Shown: piece by piece, positions 17,580-54,747 of the stretch
Layout: each line of letters opens with the position of its first letter
Position numbering within the stretch: position 1 is the stretch's first letter
Assembly: GCA_963845755.1 (NCBI GenBank)
Contig: CAWJTV010000041.1
Coordinates: 576,001-640,000 of the forward strand
DNA from: an uncultured Planctomycetota bacterium
Lineage (GTDB): Bacteria > Planctomycetota > Planctomycetia > Isosphaerales > Isosphaeraceae
Length of the DNA: 64,000 nucleotides
Direction of reading: 5' to 3'
Made by a program: the position numbers and the translations under genes
Notes under the pieces: model-generated
Told to the model about the DNA's origin: nothing
What the model saw: the letters and a program-made list of their open reading frames with translations, nothing else
The model's database searches: none

Positions 17580-17590
17580 ATCTTCACGAG

Positions 17591-26068: not shown

Positions 26069-26269
26069 CTTAGTTGATCCCTGGAGCGGCTGTCCGTCGG
26101 TGACCTCAAGGGGTGAAGAGCTACATCACGAATCGATCGGCCCGAAGTCTCAAAGAGATAGGGGCCTCGCGTCACCGGCTCGTGTTGGGGCTCCGAGGGG
26201 ATCGGCTCCAGCTTGGCGGGTATGGGCGATATGAGTGACTCTCCTTGCAAAGCTCAGATCGGGGCTCCA

Positions 26270-36089: not shown

Positions 36090-36653
36090 TTAGCGACCCA
36101 CCCCCAGCGAATCCGCCACGCGGTTGATGTAGTTGAACCACGACGCGATCAGGGTGATCTGGAGTATGGCGCGGTCGTCGAAGCCCGAGGCGCGGAGCCG
36201 CTCATGGTCATCCGGCGAGACCCTGGTCGCATCCTTGGTGAGCTTGACGACGTAATCGATCATGACCCGCTCCTGATCGGTGATCGGAGCCTTCGTGTAA
36301 TCCTCGCGAAGCGCCTGGACGAGGTCGTCGTCCAGGGTGACCCGACGCAGAAACTCTGCGTGTGAGACAATTCAGTAATGACACTTGTTCGTGAGCGAGA
36401 CCATGGTCGCGATCATCTCATGCTGCCGGCGCCGGAGCGGCAGGTCCGGCGACATGAGGGAGCCGAATGTGGCGAACGCGTGGTAGAGCGCCTGCGGGAT
36501 CAAGGAGTGTGAGGCGACGATCCCCGGCAGGCCCTGGTCGAGCTCCTGCACGGGCTGCGCATATTCCGGGGGATAGAGCGTGCGCTGATCGGCCATCGCC
36601 TTGAGTACTGCGTCATCCTCGCCGTCCAACGGAGTTGTTCGAATCCAGGCCAT
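36090..36653 (-). CDS. AhpD/CMD-family selenoprotein (CHYU), UGA at 36372-36374, 187 aa
   Basis: [28 protein letters not shown]...[15 protein letters not shown] continues in frame; hairpin ACGCAGA-GTT-TCTGCGT 10 nt after UGA. Confidence 0.85.
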
Positions 36654-36679
36654 GAGTGGAAACCCCTCTCCGGTTCAGT

Positions 36680-38113
36680 TCAAAGGTCGGTGAAGGCGGT
36701 CGCCGCGGAAGATTCCTCGCCCGATCCCTTTGGCAGGCGATCAGCCGCGCCGGCCGGCGGTCGCCGCGACATGACCCATGCGGCGACGGGCACTCCCAGC
36801 AGGACGACGGCGAACCCGATCCCGACGCGCCGGGGATCGCGCAGAGTCTGCAGGAGGATCACGATCACGATCGGGACGAGGGCCAGCAGGAGCGTAACGG
36901 GATAGCCGGGCACGGACAAGGGGGTCTTCGTCAGCCGGCGTGCGCGGCGTTGGAGGACGAAGACCCCGGCCAGGGCGAGCGCCAGGAAGGCCAGGGTCGG
37001 GACCATGAAATAATCGAGGATCTGTTCGAACGTGCCGGTCAAGGTGAGCACGCAGGCCAGCGCGGACTGGATCGCGATGGCCCGCAGGGGAGTCCCCCAG
37101 CGCGGGTCGATCGCGGCGATGGTGGGGAAGAACAATCCATCTCGCGCCATCGCGTAATACACGCGCGGGAATGCCATGAGGACCGCGGCCAGGCTGCCGG
37201 CCACCGAGGCGACCACGCCGGCCGCGAAGAGGATCTCCCCTGTGCCGCCGAAGAGGGCCCGGCCGGCCAGGGCCGCGAACGCCGCCCGGTCCTGGTCCGT
37301 CGTGATCTGGTCCGGCGCGACCAGATAGAGGAACACCACACTGACGGCAATGTAGACCATCGTGACGATCGACACGCCCAGCACCAATGCGCGGGGCATG
37401 GTGCGTTCGGGATCGCGGACCTCGCCCGCGATCTTGCTGGCATCCCACCAGCCCGCGATCGAGATGAAGGCCAGGATCAGGCCGCCGCCCAGGGCCGTCA
37501 GCGGCGGGTCCGAGCCGGCTCGCTGGGTCCAGAACGGCGTCAGGTTCGACCAGTCGCCGCCGCCGGAAGCGAAGCCCCAGACGACGAGGAAACCGAGCAG
37601 GCCCAGCTTCAACCCCGTCAAGGCGCGGAGGACCCCCGAGCCCAGCGCGATGCCCACCATGTTGAACGCGGCCAGGCCCACGATCGCGGCGATGGCCACC
37701 GCCTTCAGTGCCCAGCCGGAGAGCGGTGCCAGGTGCGCGACGTAGTCCGCCAGGCCGACGGCCAGCATCGCGGTCAAACCCGGGTCGGTGACCAGCATCG
37801 AGAGCCACCCGTAGAGGAAGGCCGTGCGCGGTCCGAACGCTTCTCTCAGATAAACGTAGACCCCGCCGGCCTCGGGATAGCGCGCCGCCAGGCCGCCGAA
37901 GCACAGGGCCCCGCCGATGGCGCTGATCCCCATCGCCAGCCAGACCGCCACGATCCATGTTGGCGAGCCCAGCGACTTTGCCATCCCGGCCGGCGCCAGG
38001 AAGATCCCCACGCCGATCACCTCGCCCACGACCAGGGCGGTCGCGGTCGCCAGGCCGAGTCGACGCGCCAGGTCCCGCTTCGGCGCGATGGTATCGTCCG
38101 TCTGGTTGTCCAT
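36680..38113 (-). CDS. APC-family amino acid permease
   Basis: VIGVGIFLAP, PEAGGVYVYLREAFG, GEVRDPERTMPRAL, PRVYYAMARDG, VPGYP; ~12 TM. Confidence 0.92.
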   Translation of the reverse strand: MDNQTDDTIAPKRDLARRLGLATATALVVGEVIGVGIFLAPAGMAKSLGSPTWIVAVWLAMGISAIGGALCFGGLAARYPEAGGVYVYLREAFGPRTAFLYGWLSMLVTDPGLTAMLAVGLADYVAHLAPLSGWALKAVAIAAIVGLAAFNMVGIALGSGVLRALTGLKLGLLGFLVVWGFASGGGDWSNLTPFWTQRAGSDPPLTALGGGLILAFISIAGWWDASKIAGEVRDPERTMPRALVLGVSIVTMVYIAVSVVFLYLVAPDQITTDQDRAAFAALAGRALFGGTGEILFAAGVVASVAGSLAAVLMAFPRVYYAMARDGLFFPTIAAIDPRWGTPLRAIAIQSALACVLTLTGTFEQILDYFMVPTLAFLALALAGVFVLQRRARRLTKTPLSVPGYPVTLLLALVPIVIVILLQTLRDPRRVGIGFAVVLLGVPVAAWVMSRRPPAGAADRLPKGSGEESSAATAFTDL

Positions 38114-38186: not shown

Positions 38187-39257
38187 TCAATAGTCCGACG
38201 CACTGATCACTTCGTTGCCATTCCGGGTGCTCAGGGCGCGCCACACGGTCAGGGCCACGCTGTCCTTGATGAACCGGACCGACCCGTCGCCGAACAGGAG
38301 GTTGACCCCGCCGGGGTGAGAGCTCGACGGGGGGAGATCCACGGCCATGTTCGCCATCGAGCCCATCATCATTCCAGAGGACATGCTCGCACAAGTCCGC
38401 GTATTCGGCGTGCCGACGTGGTTGTAGGTCGAGCAGCTCATGTCGCCGATGGCCCAGGTGGCTCCCATCCAGCTCGTGAGGGGCATGGCCATGCTCGGGC
38501 TCATGCTGGTGCACATCTGCAGGGTTTGATCGATGGTCAAGGCGGTGTTCATCATGTACATGTCGTTCTTCAGGTCGGGTGTCCCCTGGCCGCGGCGCCG
38601 CTCGCTGAAGAAGGCGGTGTTGCTGGTCCCGTCGGTCATGCTCGCCAGGTTGACGCAGCTCATGTTGTAGAGCGGGCCCTGGGGCAGATAGCCCGGCGCG
38701 ACCGTGCTGGGGGTCTGCTGGCAGCAGTCGCAGAGCCATGACCCCTCGTTGCCGAAGTAGTTGTTGCCGCCGTCCCAGCCGGGCGGGCCGCTCGCCGAGG
38801 ACGGGTCCGACGGGCACAGGAATGCCGACATCGCGATCCGGCACACCGTGCTGTTCTCGCGGTTCGGGTCCTGGAACGCCGGCATGAACCCCATGTTGTA
38901 ATTGTCCATGAACGGCGTTTCCGGCGGCAGGTTGAAGTTGATCGCGTTGAATAAGGGTGTTTGCTCGAAGAAACCGAGGATCTGGCTGTGAGTGGACCAT
39001 CGGGCGTAGGTCGGCGCCATGGGGATCACACTCATGTAATTATTCCCCTTGCCGAAGGGGAGGCTATTGAGCGCATCGACGTAGTTGTGCAGGGCCAACC
39101 CGAACTGCTTGAGGTTGTTGGTGCACTGGAACCGCCGGGCCGCCTCCCGCGCCGATTGCACGGCCGGCAGGAGCAGCGCGATTAGGACCGCGATGATCGC
39201 GATCACCACCAGGAGCTCGATCAGGGTGAAACCCGATCGGCGATGATTCCGAAGCAT
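38187..39257 (-). CDS. DUF1559 prepilin-type protein, Met-rich
   Basis: GFTLIELL...; [16 protein letters not shown]; 24 Met in 356 aa. Confidence 0.95.
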
Positions 39258-39338
39258 GGATCATCCTTTCATAGGATAAGATCAGGGCCGTTCACGGTGC
39301 AAAGGCCTTCTGAAACGCCCGTCACGTCGGGATGCGAT

Positions 39339-39814
39339 TCACTTCCGAAGCATGTCGCGAAAGACGGTCACCGATGGACTCGTGCCGACGAGGTACCACA
39401 CCGTCTTCTCGGCGGCCTTCCCTTGACTCTTTCCCGGGCCGTTCAGCGTGAGCTTGACCTGGACGCGAAGATTGGCGTCGTAGGCCTTGCCGTCGTCGAT
39501 CACCTGATAGTCGACCAGCCTGGCGCCGGCGGCCCAGTCGAAGTCCTGGACGGTCATCGGCGTCGCGGACGATGCGAGCGACCTGGGATCCTCCCCTTTC
39601 TTCCACTGCTCCAGGGCGGTCTTGAGCGCCTCGCGGGCGCAGGCGGGTTAACGGCATGAGCACCGGCGGAGCCCGAGCAGCCCGAGAAGAACAGGGTAGC
39701 CAGCACGCCGAGGCAGGCGGCCAGCACGCCGAGCGTGCCGTACCAGCTCAAGTCGCGGTCGCCCCGCCGGGCCACGGAATGCGCGAACGTCATCGATTTC
39801 GTCGTGATGATCAT
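39339..39814 (-). CDS. DUF1559-associated lipoprotein (frameshift ~39645)
   Basis: FSGC lipobox; C-terminal frame VQDFDWAAGARLVDYQV...VWYLVGT; same family as 43306..43713. Confidence 0.75.
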
Positions 39815-39850
39815 CAGTCACCTCCAATTCGTTGATAAGTCCCTGGACGC

Positions 39851-40810
39851 TCAGAAGCTGTCGGCACTGACGATCTCGCCACCGTTCCGAGTCCCCAGTG
39901 CACGCCAGGTTTGCAGGTTGACCGAGTCCTTGACGAACTTGACCGATCCGTCGCCGAAGCAGACATTGACGCCGCCGGGATGACGGCTGCTCGGCGGCAT
40001 CACCGCGCGAAGGGCGATGAAGAACCCGCAGGACCGCGAGTTCGGCGGCGTGACGTGCAGGAAGATGTGCTGCCCATTCAGCCACGGCGCGCCCATGAAG
40101 AGCGGGAACTGATTGTTCAGGTCGAAGATATTCACGGCCTGGCAGATCTGCATGGCCTGGTCGGGCGTCGTGGGGGACGCGGGCGAGAAGAACACGTCCG
40201 CGACCGGGCTGACGACCGCGTTGTTGCCGTCGGCCAGGACCCGCTCGCTGAAGAACGTCGTATTGGATAGCCCGTCGGTGATCGCGGCGAACGTCGTGGC
40301 GCTGTCGCCGTAGAAGATGCCATTGGGCTGGGGCAGCCCGGCGTTGCCGCCGACCGCCTGCTGCCAGACGATGCCGCTGCCCATGTTGGCCATGTAGTTC
40401 GTCTGACCCCCCAACGAGGGGATCGGATCCGGCAGGTCCGAGGGACAGATGAAGCCGTTGATGACCGTCATCATGGCGGTGAAGTTGGTCGGATCCTGAT
40501 AGGAAAAGTCGCAGTTGATCGTGTTATACACGTTCGACTGCTCCAGGTACGGCAAGATCTGCGAGAGGGCCGAAAGCTCGGTGGCGTTGGGGCTGTTGTA
40601 CACCATGTCGGCCCCCGGCAAGGCATTGCGCGACTCGAAATAATTGTGCAGGCCAAGGCCGATCTGCTTGAGATTGTTGACGCACTGAGCCCGCCGCGCG
40701 GCCTCCCGCGCCGCCTGCACTGCGGGCAAGAGCAGCGCGATTAACACGGAGATAATGGCAATGACCACCAGCAGCTCGATGAGCGTGAATGCGGAACGGC
40801 GACGAATCAT
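39851..40810 (-). CDS. DUF1559 prepilin-type protein
   Basis: AFTLIELL...; [24 protein letters not shown]. Confidence 0.95.
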
Positions 40811-41187: not shown

Positions 41188-41627
41188 TCAGGCGGGAGGA
41201 GGATGGAAGATGGAGGGCTTTTCTCCGGCGGCCCGCTCGGACGGTTCATCGACCGTTCGACTCGGCGGAGTGAGTGGGGGAGGATCGCCAGCGTTGTCAA
41301 GACGCCCCATTGGTCGGAGCGGTCGGAGTCTGGGGAAGCGTCGTCGGGGCCGGCATGGGAACTCGGTTCGAGCAACCCGGACCCGAGCACGGTGTAGGAT
41401 GCTTGGGTCCCGGCTCTCCCGCGGGATCATCCGAGCGTGAGGAAGGCGAGCCGCCGGTAATGAGCTTATCGAGCTGGTTGATGCCGAGGAGCCGATGGGA
41501 ATGCGAGGAGACGAGGTGATTGCAGACGGCCCAGGCGGGGCGAGCCATACCGAGACCGTGGACCAAGAGCAGCATCAGCGCCTCCGGTTGCCCACCGCGT
41601 CACTCGCTCAAAACGCCTGTACTTCAT
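41188..41627 (-). CDS. secreted Cys-motif leader ORF, copy 1 (frameshifted in assembly)
   Basis: pieces: MKYRRF...LLLVHGLGMARPAWA-VCNH...PCSGPGCS...DQWG...IFHPPPA*. Confidence 0.65.
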
Positions 41628-41735
41628 TATTGTCTCACGGCCGAACGGGAGATATCCCGTTCGCGGAAACCCATCTTGAGGTTGATACCTTGAGATGCCG
41701 AGTTGAAGGGACAATGTCCCCACTTTCGTTGAGAT

Positions 41736-41765
41736 AACATACACGCTCGGGGCATGGCATTGCAA
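41736..41765 (-). promoter_or_regulatory. sigma70-like promoter of module 1
   Basis: TTGCAA-18 nt-TATGTT upstream of leader copy 1. Confidence 0.45.
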
Positions 41766-41967
41766 GAAGTTACCAGAGAGAAATCCCATGCCCCGTTCCG
41801 AGACGAGGGACCGAGGTCATCGATCGCAGCGAAACGGGTCGTGTCTCCTTCGAGGGCCGCAAATCACTTCTGGCTCATGTGAGGAAGCTCGTGGGCGGGC
41901 AGGTCCCGCGGGAAACCAGTCAGGTCTTCCCGCGGGAATCCCACTCCAGCGAAAGCCACCCCTCCCG

Positions 41968-43281
41968 TCATTTCGGCCGAACGATTCGCTGTCGCGGCGC
42001 GGGACCAGTCTCCGTTCTCACTCTCTGGCTGCGGTCGGCGGCCACCCCGGTGGGTTCGGGACCTTCGGCCGATTCCTGGTCGAGCAAGAGCATCACTAAA
42101 GACTGTTCCAGTTCACCCGGCTTGAACCCCATGGGGCCGCGCCCTCCCTTGTAGACAACCCGGCCATCCCGGTTGATGAGGTAGAGTCGGTCCGGCATGC
42201 CGCTGTAGGCGTGGCCCACCCGATCGTCCAACTCGTCCACGAGCAGGGGCATCGTCATCTTCAGGAGCGTGCAACACTTCTTGGCCACGGCGAATCGCTC
42301 GCCGGGGTCAGTCGGCTGACTGAGGGCAATTCCGGCCTTCTCGTTGCTCGGGAGCGGCCAGCCATCGGTCGGATGGGCCTCGCGGACGTAGACCCCCAGA
42401 AATGCAACGCGATCATCGTACCGCTTGTACATCTCTTCGAGGACCCCAAACTGGGATCGGTAGGGCGGTCAGGTGAAGCTGCCGAAGATCAGGACGACAG
42501 GTTTCTTGCCGCGGTACTGTGAGAGCCCGATGACGCCACTGTGGTCGTGGGTCGTGAGCGTGAAGTCCGGGGCCGGTGCCCCGAGGTCCGGACCTTCGAA
42601 CGTCGAGCCGATATCGCCGTTGAGTATCACTTTGAGTCGATCCACGCGGTCTGCGAAGGTGGCGAATCGGGATCTTGGCCGCTCCGCATTGATGAACATC
42701 GCGTCGCGGAGGTCATCGTTGGTAAGGTGGTCCTTACCCTGGGCGACGATGGTGAAGAATGCCTTCCACTCGCCCTCGGTAATCCGGCCGTTCGCGTCGG
42801 AATCGATCATATCGAACCGGCGGCTCCCCTGCCGTGCCATCTGGTACCACGCCGACCGCTCCGACCAGTCGAAGTCGGTTGCGGCGATCACGCCGTCGTG
42901 GTCGCGGTCGAGCCGGTCCCAGTCGGGGGCCGGTCCCGTGAACTCATGGCGGAGGATCACGCCGTTGCGATCACGGTCGAACCGGGAGGCGAGCCACTCC
43001 CACGTGTAGCGCGAGATGCTGGGGTGATACCAACCGCCCGGCGAACCGCTGGTACGCGGTGCGGTCGAGAAATTGGACCGGATCTGTTCGAACAGTTCGG
43101 GCATGCGGCCGGCGCGGATGGCCGGTGCGATAGCCTGCCGGAGACGGTTCGGATCGATCGCGTTGAGTCGTGGCCGTTGCGGCGCCGGTTTGGCTTCGTC
43201 TGCCGCCGGAGCGGGGACGCCGCCAGCCAGCGCGAACAGGGCCGCCAGCGCGGCGGCCCTGGTTCGTGAGTTCATCGTCAT
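41968..43281 (-). CDS. secreted EF-hand + iodothyronine-deiodinase-like selenoprotein (FGSFTUPPY), UGA at 42469-42471, 437 aa
   Basis: PVVLIFGSFT-UGA-PPYRSQ continues in frame into VYVREAHPTDGW...AYSGMPDRLYLI...YKGGRGP; hairpin GATCCCA-GTT-TGGGGTC 10 nt after UGA; DRDRNG/DRDHDG/DSDANG EF-hand loops. Confidence 0.88.
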
Positions 43282-43305
43282 GTCCTCCAGAGGGTAAGAT
43301 TGTGA

Positions 43306-43713
43306 TTAGTTGAATACCAAGCGAGAGACCGTCCCGACCGGGTTGGTGCTGACCCGATACTCAGCCGATTCCTTCGTCTGTTTCCCCTTGACGTTGGTCA
43401 GCCAGAGTGTGACCTCGAATGCCTGCTGGCCTCCCTTGGGTGAACCCGGGCCTTTCAACTCGAACTTCGTCAGCTTGCTGCCGCTTTCCCATTTCGGCTC
43501 GGAGACCTTGATCGGCGGGTTGGCCTTCTCCATCCCTTCGAGGGTCTCTCCGTTCTGCCAGGATGTGAGCGCCCGCTCCAGGGTTCGTTTCGCCTCGTCG
43601 AGGTTCGGGGGGGACGGTGCCGGGATGCTCTCGCATCCGAATAGGACGATCAGAACGGACGCCGCCAGGACTGACCTGGAGCGAAGGTAGGGTGCGAAAC
43701 GTCGTTCACGCAT
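43306..43713 (-). CDS. DUF1559-associated lipoprotein
   Basis: LFGC lipobox; AKRTLERALTSWQNG; GGAGG RBS. Confidence 0.8.
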   Translation of the reverse strand: MRERRFAPYLRSRSVLAASVLIVLFGCESIPAPSPPNLDEAKRTLERALTSWQNGETLEGMEKANPPIKVSEPKWESGSKLTKFELKGPGSPKGGQQAFEVTLWLTNVKGKQTKESAEYRVSTNPVGTVSRLVFN

Positions 43714-43747
43714 TATGAGACCTCCTCGTCAGGTGTTTGCGAATGGA

Positions 43748-44743
43748 TCAATAGTTGTCGCTCGAGATCACCTCACCGCCATTCCTCGAGCCGATCGCGC
43801 GCCAGACGGTCCGATCGATCGTCTGCTTGAAGAAGCGGACCGAGCCGTCGCACATGCCGACGTTCACGCCGCCGGGGTGGAGGCTCGTGGAGGTCAAGGT
43901 GAGCCGTTCTGGGTAGTAATAGCAGGACATCGTGTTGGGTGGGGACACGTGCTTGTAGGGCGTGACCGAAACCGTGCCGGAAATCCAGGGCGTGCCTTCG
44001 GTTGACGATCCATTGGACGGTGTCGCGGTGGGGTCGAGCGCCTGGCAGTACTGGTAGGCCTGCTCCGGAGTGGTCGGGATAACCGTTCCGACGTAGATGT
44101 CGCGGATCTGGTTGGCGACGGCGGTATTGAAGTCGCCCAGCAGCTTCTCGGCGGTCGCCGCCGTGTTGCTCGTGCCGTCTGTGATCTGGGCCAGGGTCAC
44201 CGCGGTGTTGTCGAAGAACGGCCCATCGGGCGCCGGCAGCGACGCGTTATACCCCGACGGGTCAGTCGCGCCCCATTCGTAAGCGATGGTCGTTCCCTCA
44301 CTGAAGCGGTAATCACTGCCTGCCTCGCCCGCGGGCACTTGCTGGGGGTCGGTAGGGCAGAGGAGACCCGAGATGACGGTGGCCAACGCCGTGGTGTTAC
44401 CGGCCTGGTATGTGGTCCCCGACGGCAGGTTGAAGTTGATCGACGCGTAAAGGGGCGCCTGCTCGATGAATGGCAGCAACATGGCGAACGCCGAGTACGC
44501 GTATGGGGTTGGCACCGGGGGTGCGGCTACAAAAACGCTACGGTTGATCGGGAAGCTCCCGAAGGAGCTGTTGTAGTTGTGCAGCGCCAGTCCCAGTTGC
44601 TTCAAGTTGTTGACGCACTGCGCCCGCCGGGCCGCCTCGCGGGCGGCCTGGACGGCGGGCAGCAAGAGTGCGATCAGTACCGAGATGATTGCGATCACCA
44701 CTAAGAGCTCGATCAGCGTGAAACCGGATCGTTGCCTGTTCAT
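43748..44743 (-). CDS. DUF1559 prepilin-type protein
   Basis: GFTLIELL...; [16 protein letters not shown]. Confidence 0.95.
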
Positions 44744-45074
44744 GACTGGGACTCCTCAAGGTTCGAGATCGTAACAACAGCTTCGTCTTCAAGGACACCG
44801 GAGGGCGACATTGCCGGCGCGTAGGCCGGACCCGAGCCTCTCAGGGAGTGGCTGTGCCGGGTACCGGCCACGGGCGCGTACCATCGTTCGGGGATGGATC
44901 GGGCGCGGTGAGTGGACTCACACCCCGACCGAAACCGGACAACACAGTGCATTGCGTACGACGGTCATGGCGATCGCCGCACGCAAAGCGACGACCGCGG
45001 GACTTCGACTCGGAAGACTTGGGGCGATTTCCTTTCGTGCCAGATGTGCTCAGAAATCGGCATGAACGCGAGGA

Positions 45075-46544
45075 TCATCGGCTCGAGGCCGCCTGGCCGG
45101 GCTTCGGCGGTTCCGAGTCCGGCAGCAAGAAGTCCATGAAAACATTCTCTTTCTCCAGGGCGAGCTGGAAGCCGTTGGAGATCCGGGTCATGTAGTTATC
45201 GTGGCTGGCGGTCCGGATGATGACGAAAGCGCGCTCGGGGCCGAAGTCCCGCTTCAAGCTCTCGATGTCGGCGGCTGAGATCGTCCAGGGAGCGCGAGTG
45301 AGCTTGCGGGCGAAGGCGAACGCCCGCTGCTCTTCCGCCGGGAAGCTCGACCAGTCCTCGCCGGCCAGGAGTTGGGCACGCTCGGCGACCTCGGACTTGG
45401 TCAACCCGTTGCGCTCCATGATCATCTCGGTGTGGCCCATGCAATAGGGGCAATTGATGGAACGCGTGACAACCCAGAACACGCTCGTCAAGAAGACCGG
45501 CTCCAGCCGATTCGTGTTATTGTTCGCGGACCCCCGCGTGCCCTGGCCGCCATACCGGCTCCAGGCCGCGGCCAGCTCGGGCTGATAACCGCTACACACC
45601 AGGTTCCAGATGATTCGGGTCGGGCGCCGGTTCGCATTCGGGATGGGATTCGGATTGTTGCTCGGCGGCGCGACCGCCCTGACCTCCTCCCAGGTCGGGA
45701 CTCGCACCCGCGTCTTTTTGTTCTTCTGCCGCTCCAGCCGCTCCTGCAATTCCTCATAGGGGACGCCGGTCCACTCCAGGTCGTCCTCGATCAGGTCCTT
45801 GCCCGTCGGCTTGGGTAGTGGCGATGGCCGGCTGGTCGGGCGCCGCTGGTTCTGTTGACCGTCGCCCCTGCCGGGCTCGGGGATCACGACCGCATCGATC
45901 GGTGGATACGGCCCGTCCGGCTCCAGCGGGGCACCCAGGCAGAGGAGGAATCGATCCTGGAAGTTCGAGTAGGCCATCAGCATGACCATCGCTGCGGCAT
46001 TCTTCTCGCCGTATGCCTTGGCCAGCTCGGCGAACTCGTCATCGGTGACCGAGTATGAGTTGACGGTCATCTTGCGGGCGAACTCCAGCGCGGCCTTCTC
46101 GGCGGCAGACATCTTGGAGTGATCGCCGCGGCGGAGGGCTTGGATGGCCGCGTCATCGAGCCCGGCGCGTCGGGCATCGGCGAGGGCGTAGGCTTCGGTA
46201 TAGGCGCAGTGGTTGGCGTGCGCGGCGACCCAGCGCATCTCGGCCCGGATCTTGGGGTCGAGCGGGCTGTGCGCCCGATGGACGAAGTCGAGATGGAGCA
46301 AACCGGCGGCCATGCGAGGATTGGGCCCGGCGAGCAGCCTGGCCCATGACGGGAGCGGTTCGCCCGTGCGTTTCTCGACCGGTAATTTCTTCCAGCTCTC
46401 CTCATTACTCAGCGGTGCGAATCCGAGAATGGCAGCACCCCCGGCACCCGCGCTCGGCGGATCGGCCTTCACGGCCACCGGGAACAACCCAGCGCCTATC
46501 GCCAGTAACAATCCGATCCGCGTCATCATCGCGATTCGAGACAT
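45075..46544 (-). CDS. secreted two-domain AhpD/CMD-like protein, Cys version (CPYC)
   Basis: signal peptide; EMRWVAAHANHCAY; EKAALEFARKMT; FWVVTRSINCPYCMGHTEM; YMTRISNGFQL. Confidence 0.85.
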   Translation of the reverse strand: MSRIAMMTRIGLLLAIGAGLFPVAVKADPPSAGAGGAAILGFAPLSNEESWKKLPVEKRTGEPLPSWARLLAGPNPRMAAGLLHLDFVHRAHSPLDPKIRAEMRWVAAHANHCAYTEAYALADARRAGLDDAAIQALRRGDHSKMSAAEKAALEFARKMTVNSYSVTDDEFAELAKAYGEKNAAAMVMLMAYSNFQDRFLLCLGAPLEPDGPYPPIDAVVIPEPGRGDGQQNQRRPTSRPSPLPKPTGKDLIEDDLEWTGVPYEELQERLERQKNKKTRVRVPTWEEVRAVAPPSNNPNPIPNANRRPTRIIWNLVCSGYQPELAAAWSRYGGQGTRGSANNNTNRLEPVFLTSVFWVVTRSINCPYCMGHTEMIMERNGLTKSEVAERAQLLAGEDWSSFPAEEQRAFAFARKLTRAPWTISAADIESLKRDFGPERAFVIIRTASHDNYMTRISNGFQLALEKENVFMDFLLPDSEPPKPGQAASSR

Positions 46545-46978
46545 GGTTTAGACCCTCAGTTAGTTGAGCCTGTTGTAAATTAGCATCAAATTCACATGTT
46601 TTGAAAGTTATGGACGCGTCGTCCCGCACGTGGTCCGAGCCCGTCACGCCTAGAAAGCAGTCGATCCGGACCCGGATCGTTGCGCAGGCGCGATTCGAGT
46701 CGAAGGAGCATGGTGCCGCGACGATGCGGCCCGAGTGATCCTCGACCGGTTCCTGAGTCGCAGCTCGTGGACTTTCCGGACCTAGGGCGCATCGACGCCC
46801 CGGAGTCGGATGTGATCACCGGAGGAGCACACGCCAGGCGATCATTTGGCCCATCGGGCGCGAGACATCATCGAAGATGTCCCTCCCCGCGGCGGGAAAC
46901 CGACGACGGATTCGGCGCAACTACCGAGGGGTCCGCGTCGGGACCGCACGCAGGAAACCCATCGCGACGATCGGGTCT

Positions 46979-47420
46979 TCAGGCGCACGGAGGAGGAGTC
47001 GAGGCGGATGGAACACTCGGCTCCCCCGATGAACTGGGCGAGGAGCGGTCATTACCCCTGCGAGGAAGGTGGGACATTGCGGGCGCATCGCCCGGAACGA
47101 CGAGCACCACGCCCAGGTATCGATTCGTCCGTCGCTGACGCCGGCCGGAACCGCCGGCGCGGCCGGTTGTCCTGAGCAGAACGCCCCTGAGCAGGGGCGC
47201 GGACGTGAGGGCTCCGGGATGGGATCGGCGGGAATGGCCAGATCGTGCATCAAGGAATCCGTCAACATGGAGGGCTTGTGTCGATCGGTCCGGGACGTGA
47301 CGAGGTGCGAGCAACCGGCCTGCGCCCGGGGGCGCAATCGGTAGCCAGCGCCAGGAGAACCACGAGAGCTCTTGCCGGCGGCGACACCAGTCGTTGAAGG
47401 AAGAAGGACCTCGCCATCAT
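46979..47420 (-). CDS. secreted Cys-motif leader ORF, copy 2 (frameshifted in assembly)
   Basis: MMARSFF...LVVLLALA...RAQA-GCSH...PCSGAFCS...DTWAW...RVFHPPR; 3' end either 46979 or 46921. Confidence 0.7.
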
Positions 47421-47507
47421 ACCCGCTTGTTGAGCATCGATCCCGCCCGTCTCGAGAGGGGTACGCAATGAGGCGAACGGGACCGCGAGTTATCAAGAAT
47501 TTCGAAT

Positions 47508-47536
47508 AAGGTATACGTGAACTGATCGGTTTTCAA
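47508..47536 (-). promoter_or_regulatory. sigma70-like promoter of module 2
   Basis: TTGAAA-17 nt-TACCTT; context conserved with the module 3 promoter. Confidence 0.6.
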
Positions 47537-47608
47537 GAGCCTTGTCATTTTTCCGGGGGTCCATGATACTGCGGGCGAGTGGAAAAAGGGGATGGGATTG
47601 TTGTGTCC

Positions 47609-48995
47609 TCACTTGCCACTCGTCGCGGCCTTGTCCTTCTCCCTGGGCGGCTGGTTATCCTTGAAAACATTCTCGCGCTCCAGGGGGATCTGGAAGGCGT
47701 CGGCAACCCGGGTCATATAGTGACAACGGCACGCCCAAAACAGGATGTCGAGTGTGCGTTCGGCGCCGAAGTGATCGATGAGCCGGTTCATGTCCTCGGC
47801 CGTGATCGACCAGGGCTCCCTGGACTGTTTGCGAGCAAAACGGTATGCGGCCCGATCGCCGGGAGGAAAAGAAGACCAATCCCCACTGGCCAACCGCCGT
47901 GTCCGTTCATCGAGTGCCAACTTGTCGAGGCCCGCGACCGCGAGCAGCATTTCGCAGTGCCCCATTCAGTAAAAGCAATGGATCGTGCGCGTCACGATCC
48001 AGAAGAGGCTCTCCTCGAAGACACGGTCCTGTTTCGATTCTTCGCGAAACGCGCGGGTGCAGGCCGACCAGGCCATCGCCAGCTCGGGCTGGTAGCCCAT
48101 GGTCACCAGGCTCCATCGGATGCGGATCGGCTTCTCAGGCCGGGAGACCCCCGGGGGCATCGCGCGGAGCACTTCCTCCCAGGACGGGACGCGAATCCGG
48201 CTGGGCCTTGCCCGCTGTTCCATGAGCCGCCCCTGGAGATCGTTGAACTCCATGGACAGCCAGAAGGGATCGTTGAACTCGCGACGGCTCTTCTGGGATG
48301 GGTCGGCCTTCGGAACGCTTCCGGGCCGGGACCGGTGGCGGTTCGGTCTTGGAATCGAGGCGGACCTCCAGCGGAGGCAACGGGCCACCAGGCTCGATGG
48401 GCGAGCCAAGGGCCAGGAGGAGTCGGTCCTGGAAGTTGGCATGGGCCAGCAGCAAGACCATGGCCACGACCTTCTCTTCGCCGTACCAGCCGATCAGATG
48501 CGCGACCTCGGCATCGGTGACCTCGGAGGCATCCTCGGTCATCTGGCGAGCAAAGTCGAGTGCTGCCCGCTCGGGTTCGGGCAGATCCCGATGGTCCCCT
48601 TTCAGGGAACGGAGCCCGGCCTCATCGAGGCCGTCACGCCGCAGGTCGGCCTCGGCATACGCCATGCTGTATTCGCAACGATTGGCATGACCGGCCACCC
48701 ATCGCATCTTGCCTCGGAGCATCGGCCCGAGGGGATTCCGCGCCCGATGCGCGAAGTCGAGACGGATCATCGCCGCCGTGGTTCGCGGCATCGCACCGGC
48801 CATCGCGCCCGCCCAGGACGGCAGGGCCCGGCCATTTCGCTCCTTGGTCGGCGAGAGCTTTCGCCAGCACTCGTCATCGCTCAAGAGCGGGAAGATGCCG
48901 GCCGCACCGTTGCGGGGCGGTTCGGCCGCCAGGTCGCTCGGCAGCAGGAGGGCCACCATCGGTAGCAGGATGCCGAGATTGATCACTCTAAACAT
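47609..48995 (-). CDS. secreted two-domain AhpD/CMD-like selenoprotein (CFYU), UGA at 47966-47968; one frameshift ~48290
   Basis: colinear paralog of 45075..46544; FWIVTRTIHCFY-UGA-MGHCEM aligns with INCPYCMGHTEM; hairpin GCTCGC-GGTC-GCGGGC with its loop 26 nt after UGA. Confidence 0.82.
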
Positions 48996-49071
48996 AAAAG
49001 AGACTCCTCGATTCAATGATCCAGGACCGACGAGAGGATGGATCGGCCTGCCGAAGGCGGTGTCGAGTGAC

Positions 49072-49635
49072 TCATGGGTTTGACGTTGTGGACGGACGGT
49101 TCTTTTGATACGAACGCAGCAACTGCGTGAGCCGCTGTCGCGCTTCTATGCTGAGATCGCAGTACAACTCATATTTCGGTCCGAACATCTTGACCTCTCC
49201 GCATTCCAGGCAAATCAGGGCCTGGGTTGCGGCTTCTCCCGCCTTCCACTCGATGGCGTAGTCGGGAGAGTAACCGCCGCATCGCTTTTTCTCGTCGTAT
49301 CGTTTGAATGACGCCTTGGAGGAAAACAGCGCAGTGAATGGCTCGGAGTCCGTCCCTTGTAACGTACGTTGCTCCTCGTAAAACGGGTAACCATGAAACG
49401 TGATCGTCTTCTTCTGAGTCAGCTCCTGTTCCCGTAATTCCGGTTCCCAAAACTCGCTGGGGAGTCCTTCATGGAGCAAGATATCCCCCGATTTCGGAAT
49501 GCCTGCGAGAAGCTGCGGCAGTCGGGCGAAATCCGTATCGGTTTTCTGCGGTGGTTCAGGCTCGCCCTGGATTTGTGTGGCTTGCGAGCAGCCCGCGAAC
49601 AGGATCGCCGCCAATAACAGCCAGCGACGATCCAT
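49072..49635 (-). CDS. hypothetical lipoprotein
   Basis: FAGC lipobox; LHEGLP, KRCGGYSPDYAIEW, ICLECGE. Confidence 0.7.
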   Translation of the reverse strand: MDRRWLLLAAILFAGCSQATQIQGEPEPPQKTDTDFARLPQLLAGIPKSGDILLHEGLPSEFWEPELREQELTQKKTITFHGYPFYEEQRTLQGTDSEPFTALFSSKASFKRYDEKKRCGGYSPDYAIEWKAGEAATQALICLECGEVKMFGPKYELYCDLSIEARQRLTQLLRSYQKNRPSTTSNP

Positions 49636-49791
49636 GACTGGACTCCAGGCCTTGAATTGCACCTCAGGAACTAGGCCGCGCGAGCCTGCGGTCTCGCTCG
49701 AGGAGCGTCGCCTTCCGAAGAGCCAGCAGGTCCGGGTTGCTCGCATATTCGCGTCAGGTCTCCGCTCGGTTCCCCACATCTCCAGCCTGGA

Positions 49792-50706
49792 TCAATAGCC
49801 GTCGATGATCTGTCCGTCGTTTCTCACAGCCAGCTTGTTGAGGACGCTGAGGTCGGTCGAGTTAATCACGGCCATCACATGGCCGTCGGTGAAAAGAAAC
49901 TGGCAGATGCCGGGGTGGTAGCTGCCGAACTTGCAATGCCACGGGCCACTCAGGTCGTAGAGCCCCTGACCCAGGTTGAATTGCGGAAGACCGGCGATTC
50001 GGGAGAAATTGCGTGGGAAGTCACCGTTGTAGATCGCGCCGTCTCCCCACGACGGTCCGCTCTGGCCGAACTTGCTCAGCGGGACGTGTTTCTCGCCGAC
50101 GAGAAACGTATGACTGGTCCCGTCGGTAACGTCGCGTAACCGAGTTTGCGATTGCGTTTGCACCAGTTGACTGTTGGTGATTTGCGACTGGGCCTGGCAC
50201 ATGGCGCCGTTGCACAACGGATTATCCACGATCGAGCCGGCAAACTGCCCACCATTGCCGGCATAATCCCCCACCACTCCCGGATACTGCTGAGTATCGG
50301 GAATCCCGGTGCTGGAGATCTCGAACTGCGTGCTCAGCATGGGCGGCCGCCGGGTGGGGCAATAGAACGCCTCGACAGCCGTGGCCCTCACCGTCGATTG
50401 CTGCAAGTAATAGGTGTTTGTGAGGTTCCACGCGTTGTAGAGGGGGGTCTGCTCCATGAAAGGAAGGATCTCGATGAACCAGGTGGCGTGCTGAGGTCCG
50501 ACGCGGCTCGAGGGCAGGGTCTGCTGCACCTGCTCGAAGTTATGAATGGCCAGGCCGATCTGTTTGAGGTGGTTGGCACACTGAGCCCGCCGGGCCGCCT
50601 CACGACTCTGCTGCACGGCGGGCAGCAACAAGGCGATCAAGACCGAGATGATCGCGATCACCACCAAGAGCTCGATCAAGGTGAATGCTGCTCGTTGTCT
50701 TCTCAT
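49792..50706 (-). CDS. DUF1559 prepilin-type protein
   Basis: AFTLIELL...; [24 protein letters not shown]. Confidence 0.95.
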
Positions 50707-51108
50707 GGGTTGAAACTCCGTGTTGAGTCAGAATGAGCCGGCTTGGGTCGAAACGTCTCATGAGAGAGGATTGCGCTGGGATTCTTAGGTAAACGGTCAT
50801 CTCGCGGGCTGCGCGTGCAGGCAGGCGGGATGTCTCCGCCACAAGACCGAATTGAATCGAATGTTTAGGAGCCTGTTCTCGAGTAACAACTCGCGAACTA
50901 TCCCGGTCAGGGCGCAGACGACATTACGGAGTCGGATGCCCGGACCGGACAAGTCTACGCGCAGCAACGATCCCAACGGCGGGCGGGAGACCGCATCGAA
51001 GATGTCCACTCCCATCGCTGCAACTCGACGACGAATCCGGCGCAGGCGACAAGCGAACCCGAGACGAGATCGGCATCTCGGAAGGGACCAACCGCGAGGA
51101 TCAATTCG

Positions 51109-51548
51109 TCATGTCGGCTGGATGAGCGATGGGGGCGGATGGAACACGCCAATCCCTCGCCGCACGGGGCGCATCGCGGTCGCTTCCCAGGAAAGGAAGG
51201 AGGATTGTACGGAGTTCAAGAGGTGGGCCGACGAAGACCAGGGCCAGGAATCAATCCGAACGTCAGTCACCCCGGCCGGGACGGCCGGCACATCCGGCTG
51301 TCCCGAGCAAAACGCGCCCGAGCAGGGGCGCGACGGCGGGCGCTCCGGAAGCCGATCGGAAGGGGCGACCAGATCGCGCACCAAGGACTCGGTCAGCGCG
51401 GAGGACTCGGGCCGATTGGTCAGGGACGTGACGCGGTGCGAGCAGCCGGCCTGCGCGCGGGTGGCGCAATCGCAGCCATCGCCAGGAACGCCAGAACGGC
51501 TCCTGCCGGAATCGAGACCGGTCGCTGGAAGGTAACGGACCTCGTCAT
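51109..51548 (-). CDS. secreted Cys-motif leader ORF, copy 3 (one frameshift ~51460)
   Basis: MTRSVTF...AVLAFLAMAAIAP...AQA-GCSH...PCSGAFCS...DSWPW...GVFHPPPSLIQPT*. Confidence 0.72.
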
Positions 51549-51638
51549 CGCACCAAGTTCTTGGGGATCGATCGCTTCCATCCCGAAAGAGAGTCGCAAC
51601 GGAGCGATCGAGATCGTGAGCCATCAAGAGTTCCGAAT

Positions 51639-51667
51639 AAGCTACAGGTGAAACGATCGTGTTTCAA
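51639..51667 (-). promoter_or_regulatory. sigma70-like promoter of module 3, with palindrome TGAAAC-N6-GTTTCA over the -35 and spacer
   Basis: TTGAAA-17 nt-TAGCTT. Confidence 0.6.
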
Positions 51668-51807
51668 GGGCCTCGTCATTTTTCCCGGGGCCTGGTGGGT
51701 CGATGGGACTCACCCCCTGCTGAAGTCGTAGTTGGCGTAGCCCTGGTTGGCCAGAAGCAAGGTTGGGTCTAACTTTCCCGGTGGCGGACTCGGTGAGCCG
51801 GCAGGGC

Positions 51808-52355
51808 TCACCGCTTGCCGAAGTCGTAATTCACGTACCCCTGGTTGGCCAGCCGCAATCCCGACTCCTCGTAGGCAGCGGGTCGCTCGGGGCCCAGGTT
51901 CCCAGGCCATCCACGTACCGATTGAACATGCAGAACGCCGCGGCGATCAGGACCGTATCGTGGATCGCCTTGTCATCGGCACCCTCGGCACGGGCGCGAT
52001 CGACGTCCGCCGCCTCGACGAGCCGTCCGTCGCGCCGGACTTTGTCGGCGATTGCGAGCAGAGCCTTCAATTTCGGCGAAACCAGGGCGGAATCGGGATT
52101 CTCGAGTACCTCATCGACAACCACGGTTCTCCCCGTAGTGTACCCGGGCTGCTGCCGCATGCGACTGCGTGCAGAAGTGACACCGATTCCTCGACGACAC
52201 ATAGGAGGCGATCAGCTCGCGCTCGGCCGACGTCAGTGACGACGGCGCTCTCAGAGCGCCTCGGCCAGGCCACTCAGATGGACCTGGGTTTCCGGGTAGG
52301 CGATCATCGGCCCGACGATGCCCGGTACGCCTTCGGGCAATGAGATATGCGCCAT
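51808..52355 (-). CDS. cytoplasmic AhpD/peroxidase-related enzyme, Cys version (CHFC); several frameshifts
   Basis: MAHISLPEGVPGI...ERELIASYVSSRNRCHFCTQSH...KLKALLAIADKV...IHDTVLIAAAFCMFNRYVDGL...ANQGY. Confidence 0.8.
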
Positions 52356-52399
52356 GGATGTCTTCCTCCACTGGTTCGTGAGTTCCCGAGAAGTCCGGG

Positions 52400-53682
52400 T
52401 CAGTTCGAGGACGGACGCGTCACATGCGATGACTCGCGCTGAACCTGGACTCCACTGGGCGTTGAAGCCGCGGCCTGGGTCGGCCGCGTCGCACCTTCCT
52501 GAAGGAGCAGGATGAGCGAGTGCTCCAGTTCGGCCGGCTTGAACAGGTACGGGCCGCGTCCACTCTTGAAGCCGACCTTGCCCTCTCGGTCGATGACATA
52601 AAGGCGGCCGGGCATGCCGCTATAGCGGTTGCCGGCCAGGTCGTCGATCGAATCGACGAGCATCGGGAAGCCGAGCCCGAGGAGCCGACTGCAGGTCTGG
52701 GCGACTTCGCGCGCTCGTCGTAGGTCCGGGGCTGGGCCGTGGCGACGTTCGCGCGATCGTTGCTGTCCATCCGCCAGCCATCGGTCGGATGGGCTTCCCG
52801 CACGTAGACCATCACGAACGTGGCGCGGTCCTTGTAACGCCGGTAGAGCTTCTCCATGTTCCCGGCCTGGCTGCGGAACGGCCCGCAGGTGAAGTTCCCG
52901 AAGACCAGGACGACCGGCTTGGGGCCGATCAGTTTCGAGAGCGTGATCTCGCCCTTGCCGTCATTGGTCTTGAGCGTAAAATCGGGCGCACTCTCGTCGA
53001 GCTTCGGACCCGGCTCGAGCGAACCGACCTCTCGACGAAACAGGCCGCGGATCAGCGTCGCCTTCGAAGGCCGCCCCGTGTTCGGGCCGGTCGGAGGCAT
53101 CGGAGGTGGGGCGAACGCCTCTTGCAGGTCGGAGAGCGACAGGAAGTCCTGACCGCCGCTGTCGGCCGCCCGGAAGAACGCGTCAACCTCCTCGCGCGTG
53201 ACCTTGCCGTTGCTGTCGCGATCCATGCGCGAGAATATCAGAGATCCCGGCGAAGGTGCCAGCGAGCTGCCCGAGAAGTCGAAATCGGGCGGTGTCAATA
53301 CACCGTCGTGATTGCGGTCCAGCCGCGCGAAGTCGTCGCCGCCGCCGAACTCCTGGCGCGTGATCTTGCCGTTAGCGTCGCGGTCGAATCGCTTGCGAGT
53401 CGCGTTCCAGTCGAATCGCGTTTGCGAAACGGCCGTGCGAAACCAGCCGAAGTTGGGACTCATCGGTTCTTCTTCGAGAATGCTTGCGAGCATATCGACC
53501 CACTCGGGATGATCGGGCCAGGATTCATTCAGAGCCGCGGCCACCTCTGCCACCTCTCGCTGGTGGGCCTCAGCCGGTGAGGCCGGCGGCTTCCTCGGGT
53601 CGTCGGCCGCCACCAGCGCCGCCACGACCCACGGGAGGAGGATCGTGCTCGCGGTCGTCCGGATTCCAGGTCGTCTGTTCAT
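52400..53682 (-). CDS. secreted EF-hand + deiodinase-like protein, Cys version (FGNFTCGPF); frameshift ~52715
   Basis: colinear paralog of 41968..43281; VYVREAHPTDGW; YSGMPGRLYVI...FKSGRGP. Confidence 0.85.
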
Positions 53683-54219
53683 CAGGAGGCTCCTCAGTTC
53701 TTTGATTCGTGTCTGGGCAGGAAATGGGGCGCGCGGTCGGCCGGGGGCAGCACTCCGGAGCGGGAATCGGCGCGGTCCGATGGGCGCGCGCGGGGTCGTC
53801 CTCGGCACAGGGCGAGGTATCCGAGAGCGGGACTACCTGGGTTGGCGGAGGCGCGTCCTTCTCGATCCGCCTCGCCATGAGTCGCACGGCGATGAAATCG
53901 GCCAGGAATCGCCTTGAAATATTGTTGCTGTCATCCATAGCAGGCAATCCTTTCACGCTCGGTTTCTCGGAGGCATACTGACGAATGGCGAGCGCAAACG
54001 AGCTCTGTGTAACCCGCCTCGAGTGGCCCCTCGACCCCCTTGGGGCTGGGTCACCGGAGCCTTGCAACAGGGTAAGGAGAGTCGGTGGACCGAGATCGAT
54101 CGATCACGATTCGAGATCGAGCATCGTGCTGCTCGCAATCACCTGCGATCGCCGGTCCGATGGGATACGCGCCGCGCACGGATTGAAACGATCCCACCGG
54201 GTCAACTCCGTTGAGGCGA

Positions 54220-54672
54220 TTAAGAGTGTGAATGCGACTGGAGATGCCGGGGAGGCCGTTCCGGCGGAGAGGAATTGTGCCGTGGATGTGCCCGGAGGAT
54301 CTCGGGCCGTATCTCGGTCGAGTTCGGGCTATCCCAGCCGGGTGCTACGGTTGTGCAGCACCAGGATTCACTTCGCAAGGAAGTCGCTGGCGATGGTGCC
54401 GGCGGCAACGGTTGTCCCTGCGAGCAGGATAGGCCGGAACACGGTTGGTTGCGCCGGGGCCCGGGCAGCGCCGAATCGCGAGGGCTGGCGAGGGAAGCAT
54501 CGAGCCATGCCAGGTCAGCGAGCGATTCTTGGACCGATCGGCTCAGTTGAGAAGTGACGCCATGACTGCAACCCGCCCGAGCTGTTGAGGGCGCAATGCC
54601 CCCGACCGTCAGGAGCACGCAGAATGCCCCCGTAACCCAGTGCTTCGCTCGCTGGCGGAACGAAGAGATCAT
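54220..54672 (-). CDS. secreted Cys-motif leader ORF, copy 4 (intact, 150 aa)
   Basis: MISSFRQRAKHWVTGAFCVLLTVGGIAPSTARA-GCSH...PCSGLSCS...ESWCC...PPERPPRH. Confidence 0.75.
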   Translation of the reverse strand: MISSFRQRAKHWVTGAFCVLLTVGGIAPSTARAGCSHGVTSQLSRSVQESLADLAWLDASLASPRDSALPGPRRNQPCSGLSCSQGQPLPPAPSPATSLRSESWCCTTVAPGWDSPNSTEIRPEILRAHPRHNSSPPERPPRHLQSHSHS

Positions 54673-54718
54673 TTCGACTCGAGTTGGTGAGGGAACGGCG
54701 ATCTGAGAAATCAGTAAA

Positions 54719-54747
54719 AGGCTATCCGGTAAAAGGTCGGATTTCAA
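54719..54747 (-). promoter_or_regulatory. sigma70-like promoter of module 4
   Basis: TTGAAA-17 nt-TAGCCT. Confidence 0.55.

Follow-up and report, generated by a model that had tools for sequence, protein, structure and literature searches.

The window analysed here is a stretch of 64,000 nucleotides (nt) of contig CAWJTV010000041.1 (positions 576,001 to 640,000 of the forward strand) from an uncultured planctomycete of the family Isosphaeraceae, whose assembly (GCA_963845755.1) comprises 14.3 Mb in 49 contigs. On the minus strand of this window lie four homologous leader open reading frames (ORFs), each at the head of a gene module, and we suggest that they belong to a family of ribosome-arrest leaders. 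The initial annotation of this DNA had described the four ORFs and their motifs, and all of these were found: a signal-like N-terminus, AxA-[GV]-C-[SN]-H, PCSGxxCS, a Trp and a terminal FHPP or ERPP. A tblastn search with copy 4 as the query recovered copy 2 (E value 7e-10), copy 3 (2e-8) and copy 1 (9e-4). As had also been reported, copies 1 to 3 are frameshifted and copy 4 is intact; copies 2 and 3 have one net frame change each, at the end of the signal peptide, and copy 1 has three. The coordinates first given for the ORFs hold overall, save that the end of copy 2 at 46979 assumes an extra indel; the assembled stop lies at 46921, 26 codons after the diproline. Two further leader copies, both broken, are found on other contigs of the assembly (C28 and C14).

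Each window copy is preceded, at a distance of 46-108 nt, by the promoter-like pattern TTG(A/C)AA-17/18-TAnnnT that the initial annotation had proposed. The gap of 380-540 nt said to follow each copy was likewise seen, with 537, 402, 376 and 377 nt between leader and first long gene, except that a small ORF, starting at 53938, lies in the gap behind copy 4. Its N-terminus is of the type RRF[FL]A[DE]FIAxR, and it has homologs in 10 other loci (L023, L030, L083, L090, L105, L110, L113, L115, L117 and L120); a Pfam search with it gave no match.

With copy 4 as the query, five proteins were found among 104 candidates, and matches occurred in 10 of 31 relatives. The initial annotation had proposed building a hidden Markov model from the copies, and profile searches of this kind uncovered a family of considerable extent. 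A 24-member profile matches 92 of 121 genomes of the bacterium's own family, with up to 13 matches per genome, and collects 2,686 clusters at 50% identity. A broader 17-member profile matches 146 of 301 Planctomycetia genomes, including 58/73 in family f1, 44/73 in f4, 32/66 in f5 and 9/30 in f3. The named matches are Isosphaeraceae and Pirellulaceae proteins annotated as hypothetical, among them Paludisphaera borealis APW60738.1 and P. mucosa WP_277860715.1. Four of five matches outside Planctomycetia were inspected, and all lacked the motifs. Neither the four window peptides nor the 24 members had a meaningful Pfam match at E values up to 10 (a single DUF6142 match reached 0.21), and none of five leaders matched NCBIfam. 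The family is thus large, annotated solely as hypothetical, and without a Pfam or NCBIfam match. No account of it appeared among the literature matches listed for the end motifs, planctomycete DUF1559, arrest peptides and DUF2946, a listing that did not extend to subscription papers or to list D of CutF-like proteins.

From the N-terminus to the stop codon, members consist of a predicted signal peptide, a Cys, a variable linker, a Cx4C motif, a linker of fixed length and the end motif [IVL]-[FED]-[HR]-PP-[RP]. Conservation was scored on the best 149 matches, in 145 of which the end motif is present. The first Cys (Cys35) is invariant (100%), the two Cx4C cysteines are conserved at 99% and 100%, the Trp at 93% and both prolines at 99%; at the end motif, the residue two before the diproline is F (79%), E (13%) or D (5%), the next is H (74%) or R (24%), and the diproline is followed by R (87%) or P (11%). 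The tail beyond is free in length and sequence, with no more than 13 residues after the diproline in 141 of 145. The sensor had been described as CxH plus Cx4C. Its cysteines are indeed constant, but the His after the first Cys is present in 86% of the best 149, and other families have CGD[YWH] instead, so that the constant part of the motif is the three Cys and not the His.

Counted from the likely start, 22 of 23 listed members are 138-156 amino acids (aa) long, and the remaining one has a long tail. A hydrophobic stretch followed by AxA-x-C is present in 136 of 136 scored N-termini. A lipoprotein or Tat-type N-terminus was rejected (lipobox in 9 of the 136, Tat motif in none), as was selenocysteine within the leader, since the TGA codons were terminal stops in those leader matches that were read. 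AlphaFold2 predicted a signal helix only, with no domain and a predicted template-modelling (TM) score of 0.24, and structure matches in the ESM Atlas stayed at TM scores of 0.33 or below. The closest language-model neighbours there were 30 unnamed clusters, of which the three shown are from Planctomycetota. The nearest named clusters, CzcI, DUF2946 and DUF6660, lie at 0.86-0.87, below the bar of 0.9, and offer a lead only.

The distance from the last Cys to the H or R before the diproline is nearly constant in the family. It measures 55 residues in 113 copies, 56 in 23, 54 in four, 57 in three and 58 in one; thus 144 of 145 copies fall within 54-58, with one outlier at 184, and window copies 2 to 4 all have 55. 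By contrast, the linker between the first Cys and Cx4C varies from 36 to 60 residues. A second set gave the same picture (54-59 in 52 of 53 copies, standard deviation 1.2, against 10 for the first linker), as did 18 of 18 loci from other families (55-58). The linker sequence is poorly conserved despite its constant length. A length that is fixed without a fixed sequence, and that is counted back from a terminal diproline, fits what a nascent-chain sensor would need.

A crude gene caller was used to survey the genomic context of 112 copies, which lie in 74 stretches. In keeping with the proposal that the leader heads its module, 107 of 110 next called genes share the leader's strand, 96 of them within 1,000 nt, and the three strand exceptions each have a same-strand ORF that the gene caller overlooked. 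The median gap is 410 nt. Each module has one leader, even where modules are crowded, as in genome G015 with eight copies in 27 kb. Among 109 first genes scanned, DUF1559 prepilin-type genes predominate (66, two of them on the opposite strand), followed by FG-GAP/UnbV (11), EF-hand/deiodinase (4), CMD (3), ECF sigma (3) and NMT1 (1), with no assignment for 21. The 374 module proteins group into a small number of clusters, chiefly CMD/deiodinase (93), DUF1559 (78), a predicted lipoprotein (59), FG-GAP/UnbV (31), AhpD (13), an APC permease (13), a small TGA-ending AhpD (13) and a membrane protein of 328 aa (10). Among the module clusters scanned, no peptidase or maturase family was identified, and the idea of a ribosomally synthesized and post-translationally modified peptide precursor was dropped.

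Of the 59 leader-linked DUF1559 proteins, 55 group in a single clade (support 0.775), to which neither 46 other DUF1559 proteins of this genome nor five DUF2946-linked ones belong; the copy-3 target of the window is one of the four outside it. A general DUF1559 leader was rejected, because only about four of the genome's 96 DUF1559 starts have one (three with a Cys ruler, including one RAPP type, plus the broken copy 1); among 1,500 control genes, one is preceded by a Cys-ruler leader. At 18 loci from other Planctomycetia families (L198-L215, same-strand ORFs only), the first genes are a pentaheme cytochrome (10), DUF1559 (5), deiodinase-like (1), NMT1 (1) and one unassigned. The cytochrome is a membrane protein of about 940-1040 aa, followed by FG-GAP/UnbV in the three loci scanned. 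The similarity of these first genes indicates a regulon conserved across the class.

Three redox sites in the window modules (36372, 42469 and 47966), of CxxU or deiodinase active-site type, carry an in-frame TGA, and their genes are predicted to encode selenoproteins; two of the three, when read through, exceed curated cut-offs. TGA and Cys alternate at such sites across loci (25/5, 3/20 and 12/4, the last at the CFY-TGA-MGH site), and selA and selB were found in the genome. The features of the four modules are collected in Table 1.

Table 1. Leader copies, promoter-like elements and module genes in the window, in minus-strand order
Feature	Coordinates	Strand	Remarks
Leader copy 4	54220..54672	-	Intact 150-aa ORF; predicted signal peptide; 55-residue linker
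Motif sites of copy 4	GCSH 54562-54576, PCSGLSC 54424-54444, PERPPR 54247-54264	-	
Promoter-like TTGAAA-17-TAGCCT	54719..54747	-	46 nt upstream of copy 4
Small conserved ORF in gap after copy 4	53570..53938	-	Only first ~30 residues conserved; 61 aa in G015
EF-hand and deiodinase-like thioredoxin-fold protein, Cys form	52420..53682	-	Signal-like N-terminus; frameshift near its end
AhpD/CMD-family protein	51831..52371	-	Split over two frames
Promoter-like TTGAAA-17-TAGCTT	51639..51667	-	Upstream of copy 3
Leader copy 3	51109..51548	-	One frameshift, signal-peptide end; PCSGAFC, 55-residue linker, VFHPPP
DUF1559 prepilin-type protein, copy-3 target	49792..50706	-	Outside main leader-linked DUF1559 clade
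Tandem CMD/AhpD-like protein	47609..49016	-	Signal-like N-terminus; frameshifted; TGA 47966-47968 in CFY-TGA-MGH, predicted selenocysteine
Promoter-like TTGAAA-17-TACCTT	47508..47536	-	Upstream of copy 2
Leader copy 2	46921..47420	-	Frameshift at signal-peptide end; PCSGAFC, 55-residue linker, VFHPPR 47016-46999; assembled stop 46921
Tandem CMD/AhpD-like protein, Cys form (CPYC)	45075..46544	-	Signal-like N-terminus
DUF1559 gene and predicted lipoprotein	43306..44743	-	DUF1559 43748-44743; predicted lipoprotein 43306-43713
Deiodinase-family protein	41968..43281	-	In-frame TGA 42469-42471 (GSFT-TGA-PPY), predicted selenocysteine; read through, NF038285 410.6 bits (cut-off 250)
Promoter-like TTGCAA-18-TATGTT	41736..41765	-	Upstream of copy 1
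Leader copy 1	41188..41627	-	Three frame changes; VCNH, PCSGPGC, IFHPPPA-stop
Copy-1 module, first part	38187..40810	-	DUF1559 39851-40810; frameshifted predicted lipoprotein 39339-39814; Met-rich DUF1559 38187-39257
Copy-1 module, second part	36150..38113	-	APC amino-acid permease 36680-38113; AhpD-like protein starting at 36653
TGA site of AhpD-like protein from 36653	36372-36374	-	CHY-TGA, predicted selenocysteine; read through, TIGR01926 93.7 bits (cut-off 81.8)

A recurring unit at L025, L074, L080, L089, L103, L107 and other loci consists of a 665-aa FG-GAP/UnbV protein, the 328-aa membrane protein, which has a weak NQR2/RnfD match, and a TGA-split CMD protein. We take the first two to resemble the UnbV/UnbU pair of enediyne clusters. 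A halogen link, suggested by deiodinase-like proteins beside UnbV with its presumed enediyne role, was considered and found no support in the literature listing. At two loci (L121:2802-2945 and L106:12602-12745) a copy of a lipoprotein N-terminus lies between leader and DUF1559 gene, with TGA at the position of the lipobox Cys of the window homolog (39814 downward), which suggests either a relic or a small membrane peptide that has been exapted. Elsewhere on the minus strand of the window, 36 tRNA genes covering most amino acids are arrayed over 3.4 kb (14256-17662); ARAGORN also places a 37th at 20543, which falls within an ORF and is probably a false call. An apparently frameshifted transposase-like ORF (26150-27439) is presumably of the ISAs1 type, judged by its motif, and what we take to be a frameshifted RNA 3'-phosphate cyclase-like gene (54908-56114) lies directly upstream of copy 4. 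Beyond it is a repeat-rich, adhesin-like ORF of 1,902 aa (57563-63271).

The sequences around the leader suggest how it might act. The promoter pattern lies upstream of 64 of the 112 leaders, compared with 1-5 in shuffled sequences, but within the gap in only 1 of 75 (0-5 in shuffles); the modules therefore probably depend on the leader's promoter. A generic promoter and terminator scan gave no excess over shuffles, and the four window promoters are unlisted in it because they fall below its 9-of-12 threshold. Folding of the gaps and of the downstream ribosome-binding site (RBS) regions gave no consistent excess, with mean z-scores from -0.65 to +0.70, the latter around the RBS in 38 of 75 gaps sampled. 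Rfam had no match at E values up to 1 between window positions 35000 and 57000, and hence no known riboswitch is present there.

The leader's 3' mRNA is C-rich. The C/G ratio is 2.09 around the diproline, and up to 2.45 in the 30 nt preceding its end, compared with 0.96 at ordinary gene ends and 1.28 around internal diprolines. Moreover, with the amino acids held fixed, third-position G is avoided at the motif (80 observed, 135 expected) and just after it (26 and 77), whereas it is mildly depleted at ordinary gene ends (694 and 765) and enriched at internal diprolines (1370 and 1203). Genes for Rho and EF-P are present in the genome. A C>G stretch in cruR, the copper-responsive leader of Bordetella pertussis, has been mapped as a rut site (PMC9426467), and the C-rich, G-avoiding end of the planctomycete leaders resembles such a Rho site. 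The features of a CruR-type Rho attenuator are thus present as sequence signatures, namely a C>G stretch, a promoter-free gap and Rho itself; a gap of this length with no hairpin signal at the RBS does not match unmasking of the RBS as in CutF. A long, unstructured gap after a C-rich 3' end favours Rho attenuation over RBS unmasking.

We suggest that the leader is a cis-acting arrest leader similar to CutF and CruR, in which periplasmic thiol sensing would govern Rho-dependent read-through of the module. That the family comprises ribosome-arrest leaders of some kind is probable, and if it does, a Rho output is fairly likely; for the complete scheme we see somewhat better than an even chance. 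The leader would be transcribed from its own promoter and the peptide exported co-translationally, as its hydrophobic stretch and AxA site imply. With the diproline at the peptidyl-transferase centre, Cx4C would sit at the periplasmic face, within reach of the first Cys on its flexible tether; 55 residues presumably equal the span of the ribosome tunnel plus the SecY channel. Disulfide formation or folding would then pull the chain free unless a ligand occupied the cysteines. A ribosome held at xHPP or xRPP would cover the C-rich stretch and block Rho, so that the module is transcribed, and release of the chain would permit Rho termination in the gap. A copper-like metal or an oxidant arriving in the periplasm would thereby switch the module on. 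The scheme borrows from the CutF model, in which disulfides free the chain and copper binding stops this (bioRxiv 10.1101/2025.02.05.636593).

Several points weigh against this proposal. In the available text of PMC6238534 the strong pause motifs do not include HPP, RPP or PPR, the majority of the RAPP-like motifs tested failed to stall by themselves (PMC10987492), and CutF's own motif is not a strong staller alone (PMC9973294). The search profiles carry the motif spacing and so favour a tight ruler. The strict promoter pattern is missing from 48 of the 112 copies. The C-rich signal is weaker outside the bacterium's own family (C/G 1.49, n=15 loci), the z-scores of the synonymous signal are overstated because the sequences are kin, and selection for slow codons might instead explain why the mRNA at the motif is C-rich and G-poor. 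Only 5 of the 112 copies are followed by copper-type genes, and most targets are thiol/selenol redox-type proteins. Finally, five of the six leader copies in this genome are broken, a larger share than among resolved DUF1559 genes, of which 25 of 81 are broken.

The nature of the cue is best approached through the downstream genes. Four loci, including the C28 copy of this genome, lead through DUF1559 and/or lipoprotein genes to a CusA-type RND pump, and a fifth leads to an HMBD/CusB-like gene. The complete pump scores 868.9 with TIGR00914 (cut-off 701.45) and is closer to CusA (716 bits) than to ZneA (447), and four of these five leaders group in a single clade (support 1.0). Met is more abundant in leader-linked DUF1559 proteins than in the others (median 3.3% versus 2.1%, with more than 4% Met in 16 of 59 versus 1 of 46). 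The Met-rich DUF1559 of the copy-1 module (7.5% Met, with clustered MxM motifs) belongs to a subclade often linked to an APC permease and a TGA-containing AhpD, and one locus leads to a YtkA-like gene. Together, the CusA-type pumps and the Met-rich DUF1559 proteins point to copper or silver, to which we give an even chance of being the cue. The pump loci are few and the targets mostly of thiol/selenol type, and these facts leave some room, well short of even, for thiol oxidation or another oxidant; other soft metals or metalloids are unlikely. A literature listing on AhpD and copper gave unrelated items only.

A more novel but unlikely reading is that the leaders sense, across the class, not a metal but reactive oxidants or the thiol-redox state of the periplasm. 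Such a sensor too would act through the nascent chain, with disulfides among the three Cys at the SecY exit setting arrest at xHPP or xRPP and so gating Rho termination, and its regulon would comprise DUF1559, the AhpD- and deiodinase-like (seleno)proteins, FG-GAP/UnbV and the pentaheme cytochrome. If this were true, all of these families would gain their first link to a function.

For the window alone, it might be argued that the three frameshifted copies are decaying pseudogenes and not assembly errors, with the family functional elsewhere. The excess of broken copies noted above, which also surpasses a hand estimate of about 15% per 440 nt, and the three breaks in copy 1 speak for decay, and copy 1 in particular may be decaying. 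However, the assembly is rich in indels (selB is also in pieces), the breaks of copies 2 and 3 are located in the same GC-only run, motifs and promoters are all retained, and 11 of 11 leader copies in G015 are full length. A look for sequencing runs yielded none, which bears neither on expression nor on the frameshifts. We regard decay of all three as unlikely, and the window frameshifts are without effect on the family-level result.

It is improbable that the leader is instead a stable, trans-acting periplasmic protein that binds metal or thiols and merely comes first in the operon, with its C-terminal motif serving as a binding or degradation signal. The signal-like N-terminus with its AxA site, the three invariant Cys and the conserved Trp would all suit such a protein. 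A domain to hold them is not predicted, however, and a binding protein would not readily account for a linker constant in length but not in sequence, for one copy per module even inside a single cluster, or for a synonymous-site signal at the motif followed by a tail free in length and sequence.

An arrest leader that gauges export or pilin-type assembly capacity, as SecM and VemP do, or that unmasks an RBS instead of controlling Rho, would likewise have a signal peptide and a C-terminal diproline, and a first target that is mostly prepilin-type DUF1559 (66/109) and the small ORF in some gaps could be read in its favour. Invariant Cys at a fixed distance, however, imply a ligand or a disulfide, no sec or yidC genes are among 48 module clusters, and neither the gap length nor the folding z-scores suit RBS unmasking, which makes these variants quite improbable. 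A selenium-specific sensor matching selenoprotein expression to selenium supply, for which the TGA sites, the Sec/Cys alternation and the presence of selA and selB might be cited, is very unlikely as a general explanation, because five genomes that are 99-100% complete and have no selA match (G074, G103, G104, G106 and G107) hold 4-6 leader copies each, TGA is a terminal stop in the leader matches that were read, and many targets are Cys forms.

The family matters beyond the window in that the leader marks a coherent regulon of function-unknown families: one DUF1559 clade, deiodinase-like and AhpD selenoproteins, FG-GAP/UnbV and the pentaheme cytochrome. Knowing the inducer would reveal what the regulon proteins are for.

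The initial annotation had proposed an analog, and not a member, of the DUF2946 family, and our comparisons agree. The DUF2946 model (PF11162) matched none of the four window peptides and none of the 24 members at E values up to 10, whereas a control planctomycete DUF2946 protein passed with 26.2 bits, and hhalign against 20 planctomycete DUF2946-like proteins gave probabilities of 2.7% and 4.7%. DUF2946 proteins have CXXC where the leaders have Cx4C (148 of the best 149), and RAPP at 45 ± 2 residues from it where the leaders have their end motif at 54-59. Nor does the end motif share the RAPP register: H or R stands directly before the diproline, and F, E or D occupies the position at which the RAPP-like (RQH) pattern [RHQ]-[AG]-P-P has [RHQ]. 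For DUF6660 and CzcI, the language-model similarity mentioned above is not accompanied by a Pfam match in the 24 members; we take both to be small Cys-containing proteins preceding metal efflux genes.

True DUF2946 genes, with CxxC and RAPP, occur above cut-off in 11 of 81 genomes of the same bacterial family. Planctomycete DUF2946-like leaders (L124, at G000:C11:86673-86978, and L144-L167) have a ruler of 42-44 residues. Of 20 extracted, 11 lie ahead of DUF1559-type genes, among them a gene of this genome that scores below the cut-off, and four lie ahead of one membrane protein of about 420-450 aa. They thus share genomes, position and the principle of a fixed ruler with the leaders described here, but they are non-homologous and, in the five tested, precede a different DUF1559 clade.

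The RAPP-like (RQH) and uA_LPPP arrest peptides (PMC10987492, PMC12992588) are also small, exported upstream ORFs ending in diproline. LPPP, which stalls, comes from Planctomycetota, and metal, thioredoxin and ECF genes lie downstream of some RAPP leaders. The leaders differ from both in having H or R immediately before the diproline, and the LPPP group precedes secA; 'HPP' is absent from the main texts of the two papers.

Set beside the published rule for CutF-like proteins (PMC9973294), the leaders agree in size (about 150 aa at most), in an N-terminal Sec signal, as judged by sequence features, and in a diproline within the last 15 residues (141 of the 145 with the motif). As to neighbours in metal homeostasis, CusA/CusB-type genes occur in 5 of 112 loci, and most targets are DUF1559, AhpD/CMD, deiodinase-like and FG-GAP/UnbV genes. 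The main text of that paper and three of its supplements (8,054 characters) contain no planctomycete term, a statement that does not cover list D itself. CutF of Rhodobacter capsulatus (PMC9973294, bioRxiv 10.1101/2025.02.05.636593) similarly has a Sec signal, a Cys near the mature N-terminus, a central Cys pair and a C-terminal proline motif followed by Arg (PEPEGPPPRL), is first in its operon and is modelled as sensing in the periplasm. Unlike CutF, which has four Cys with CxxxC and controls a multicopper oxidase, the leaders have three Cys with Cx4C, a 55-residue linker and usually two prolines, a gap of about 400 nt that gives no sign of an RBS-masking hairpin, and DUF1559/AhpD/deiodinase/UnbV modules as targets.

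CruR (Bp2923, DUF2946; PMC9426467) is similarly about 145 aa long and poorly structured, has a fixed spacing from Cys to diproline (45 ± 2, with regulation lost at +5), a C>G stretch in its 3' part and a long promoter-free gap, again with Rho present. Pfam and profile-profile comparisons detect no similarity to it, and CruR pairs CXXC with RAPP at 45 residues where the leaders pair Cx4C with xHPP at 55. Furthermore, the CruR signal peptide is dispensable and its stall is relieved by copper, whereas the CusA-type targets of the leaders suggest induction. The family lies outside DUF2946 and is most likely an unrelated functional analog of CutF and CruR. If so, it would represent a third design of metal-sensing upstream ORF, joining CutF-like periplasmic sensing to a CruR-like Rho output with a novel candidate motif for arrest and a ruler longer by about 10 residues.

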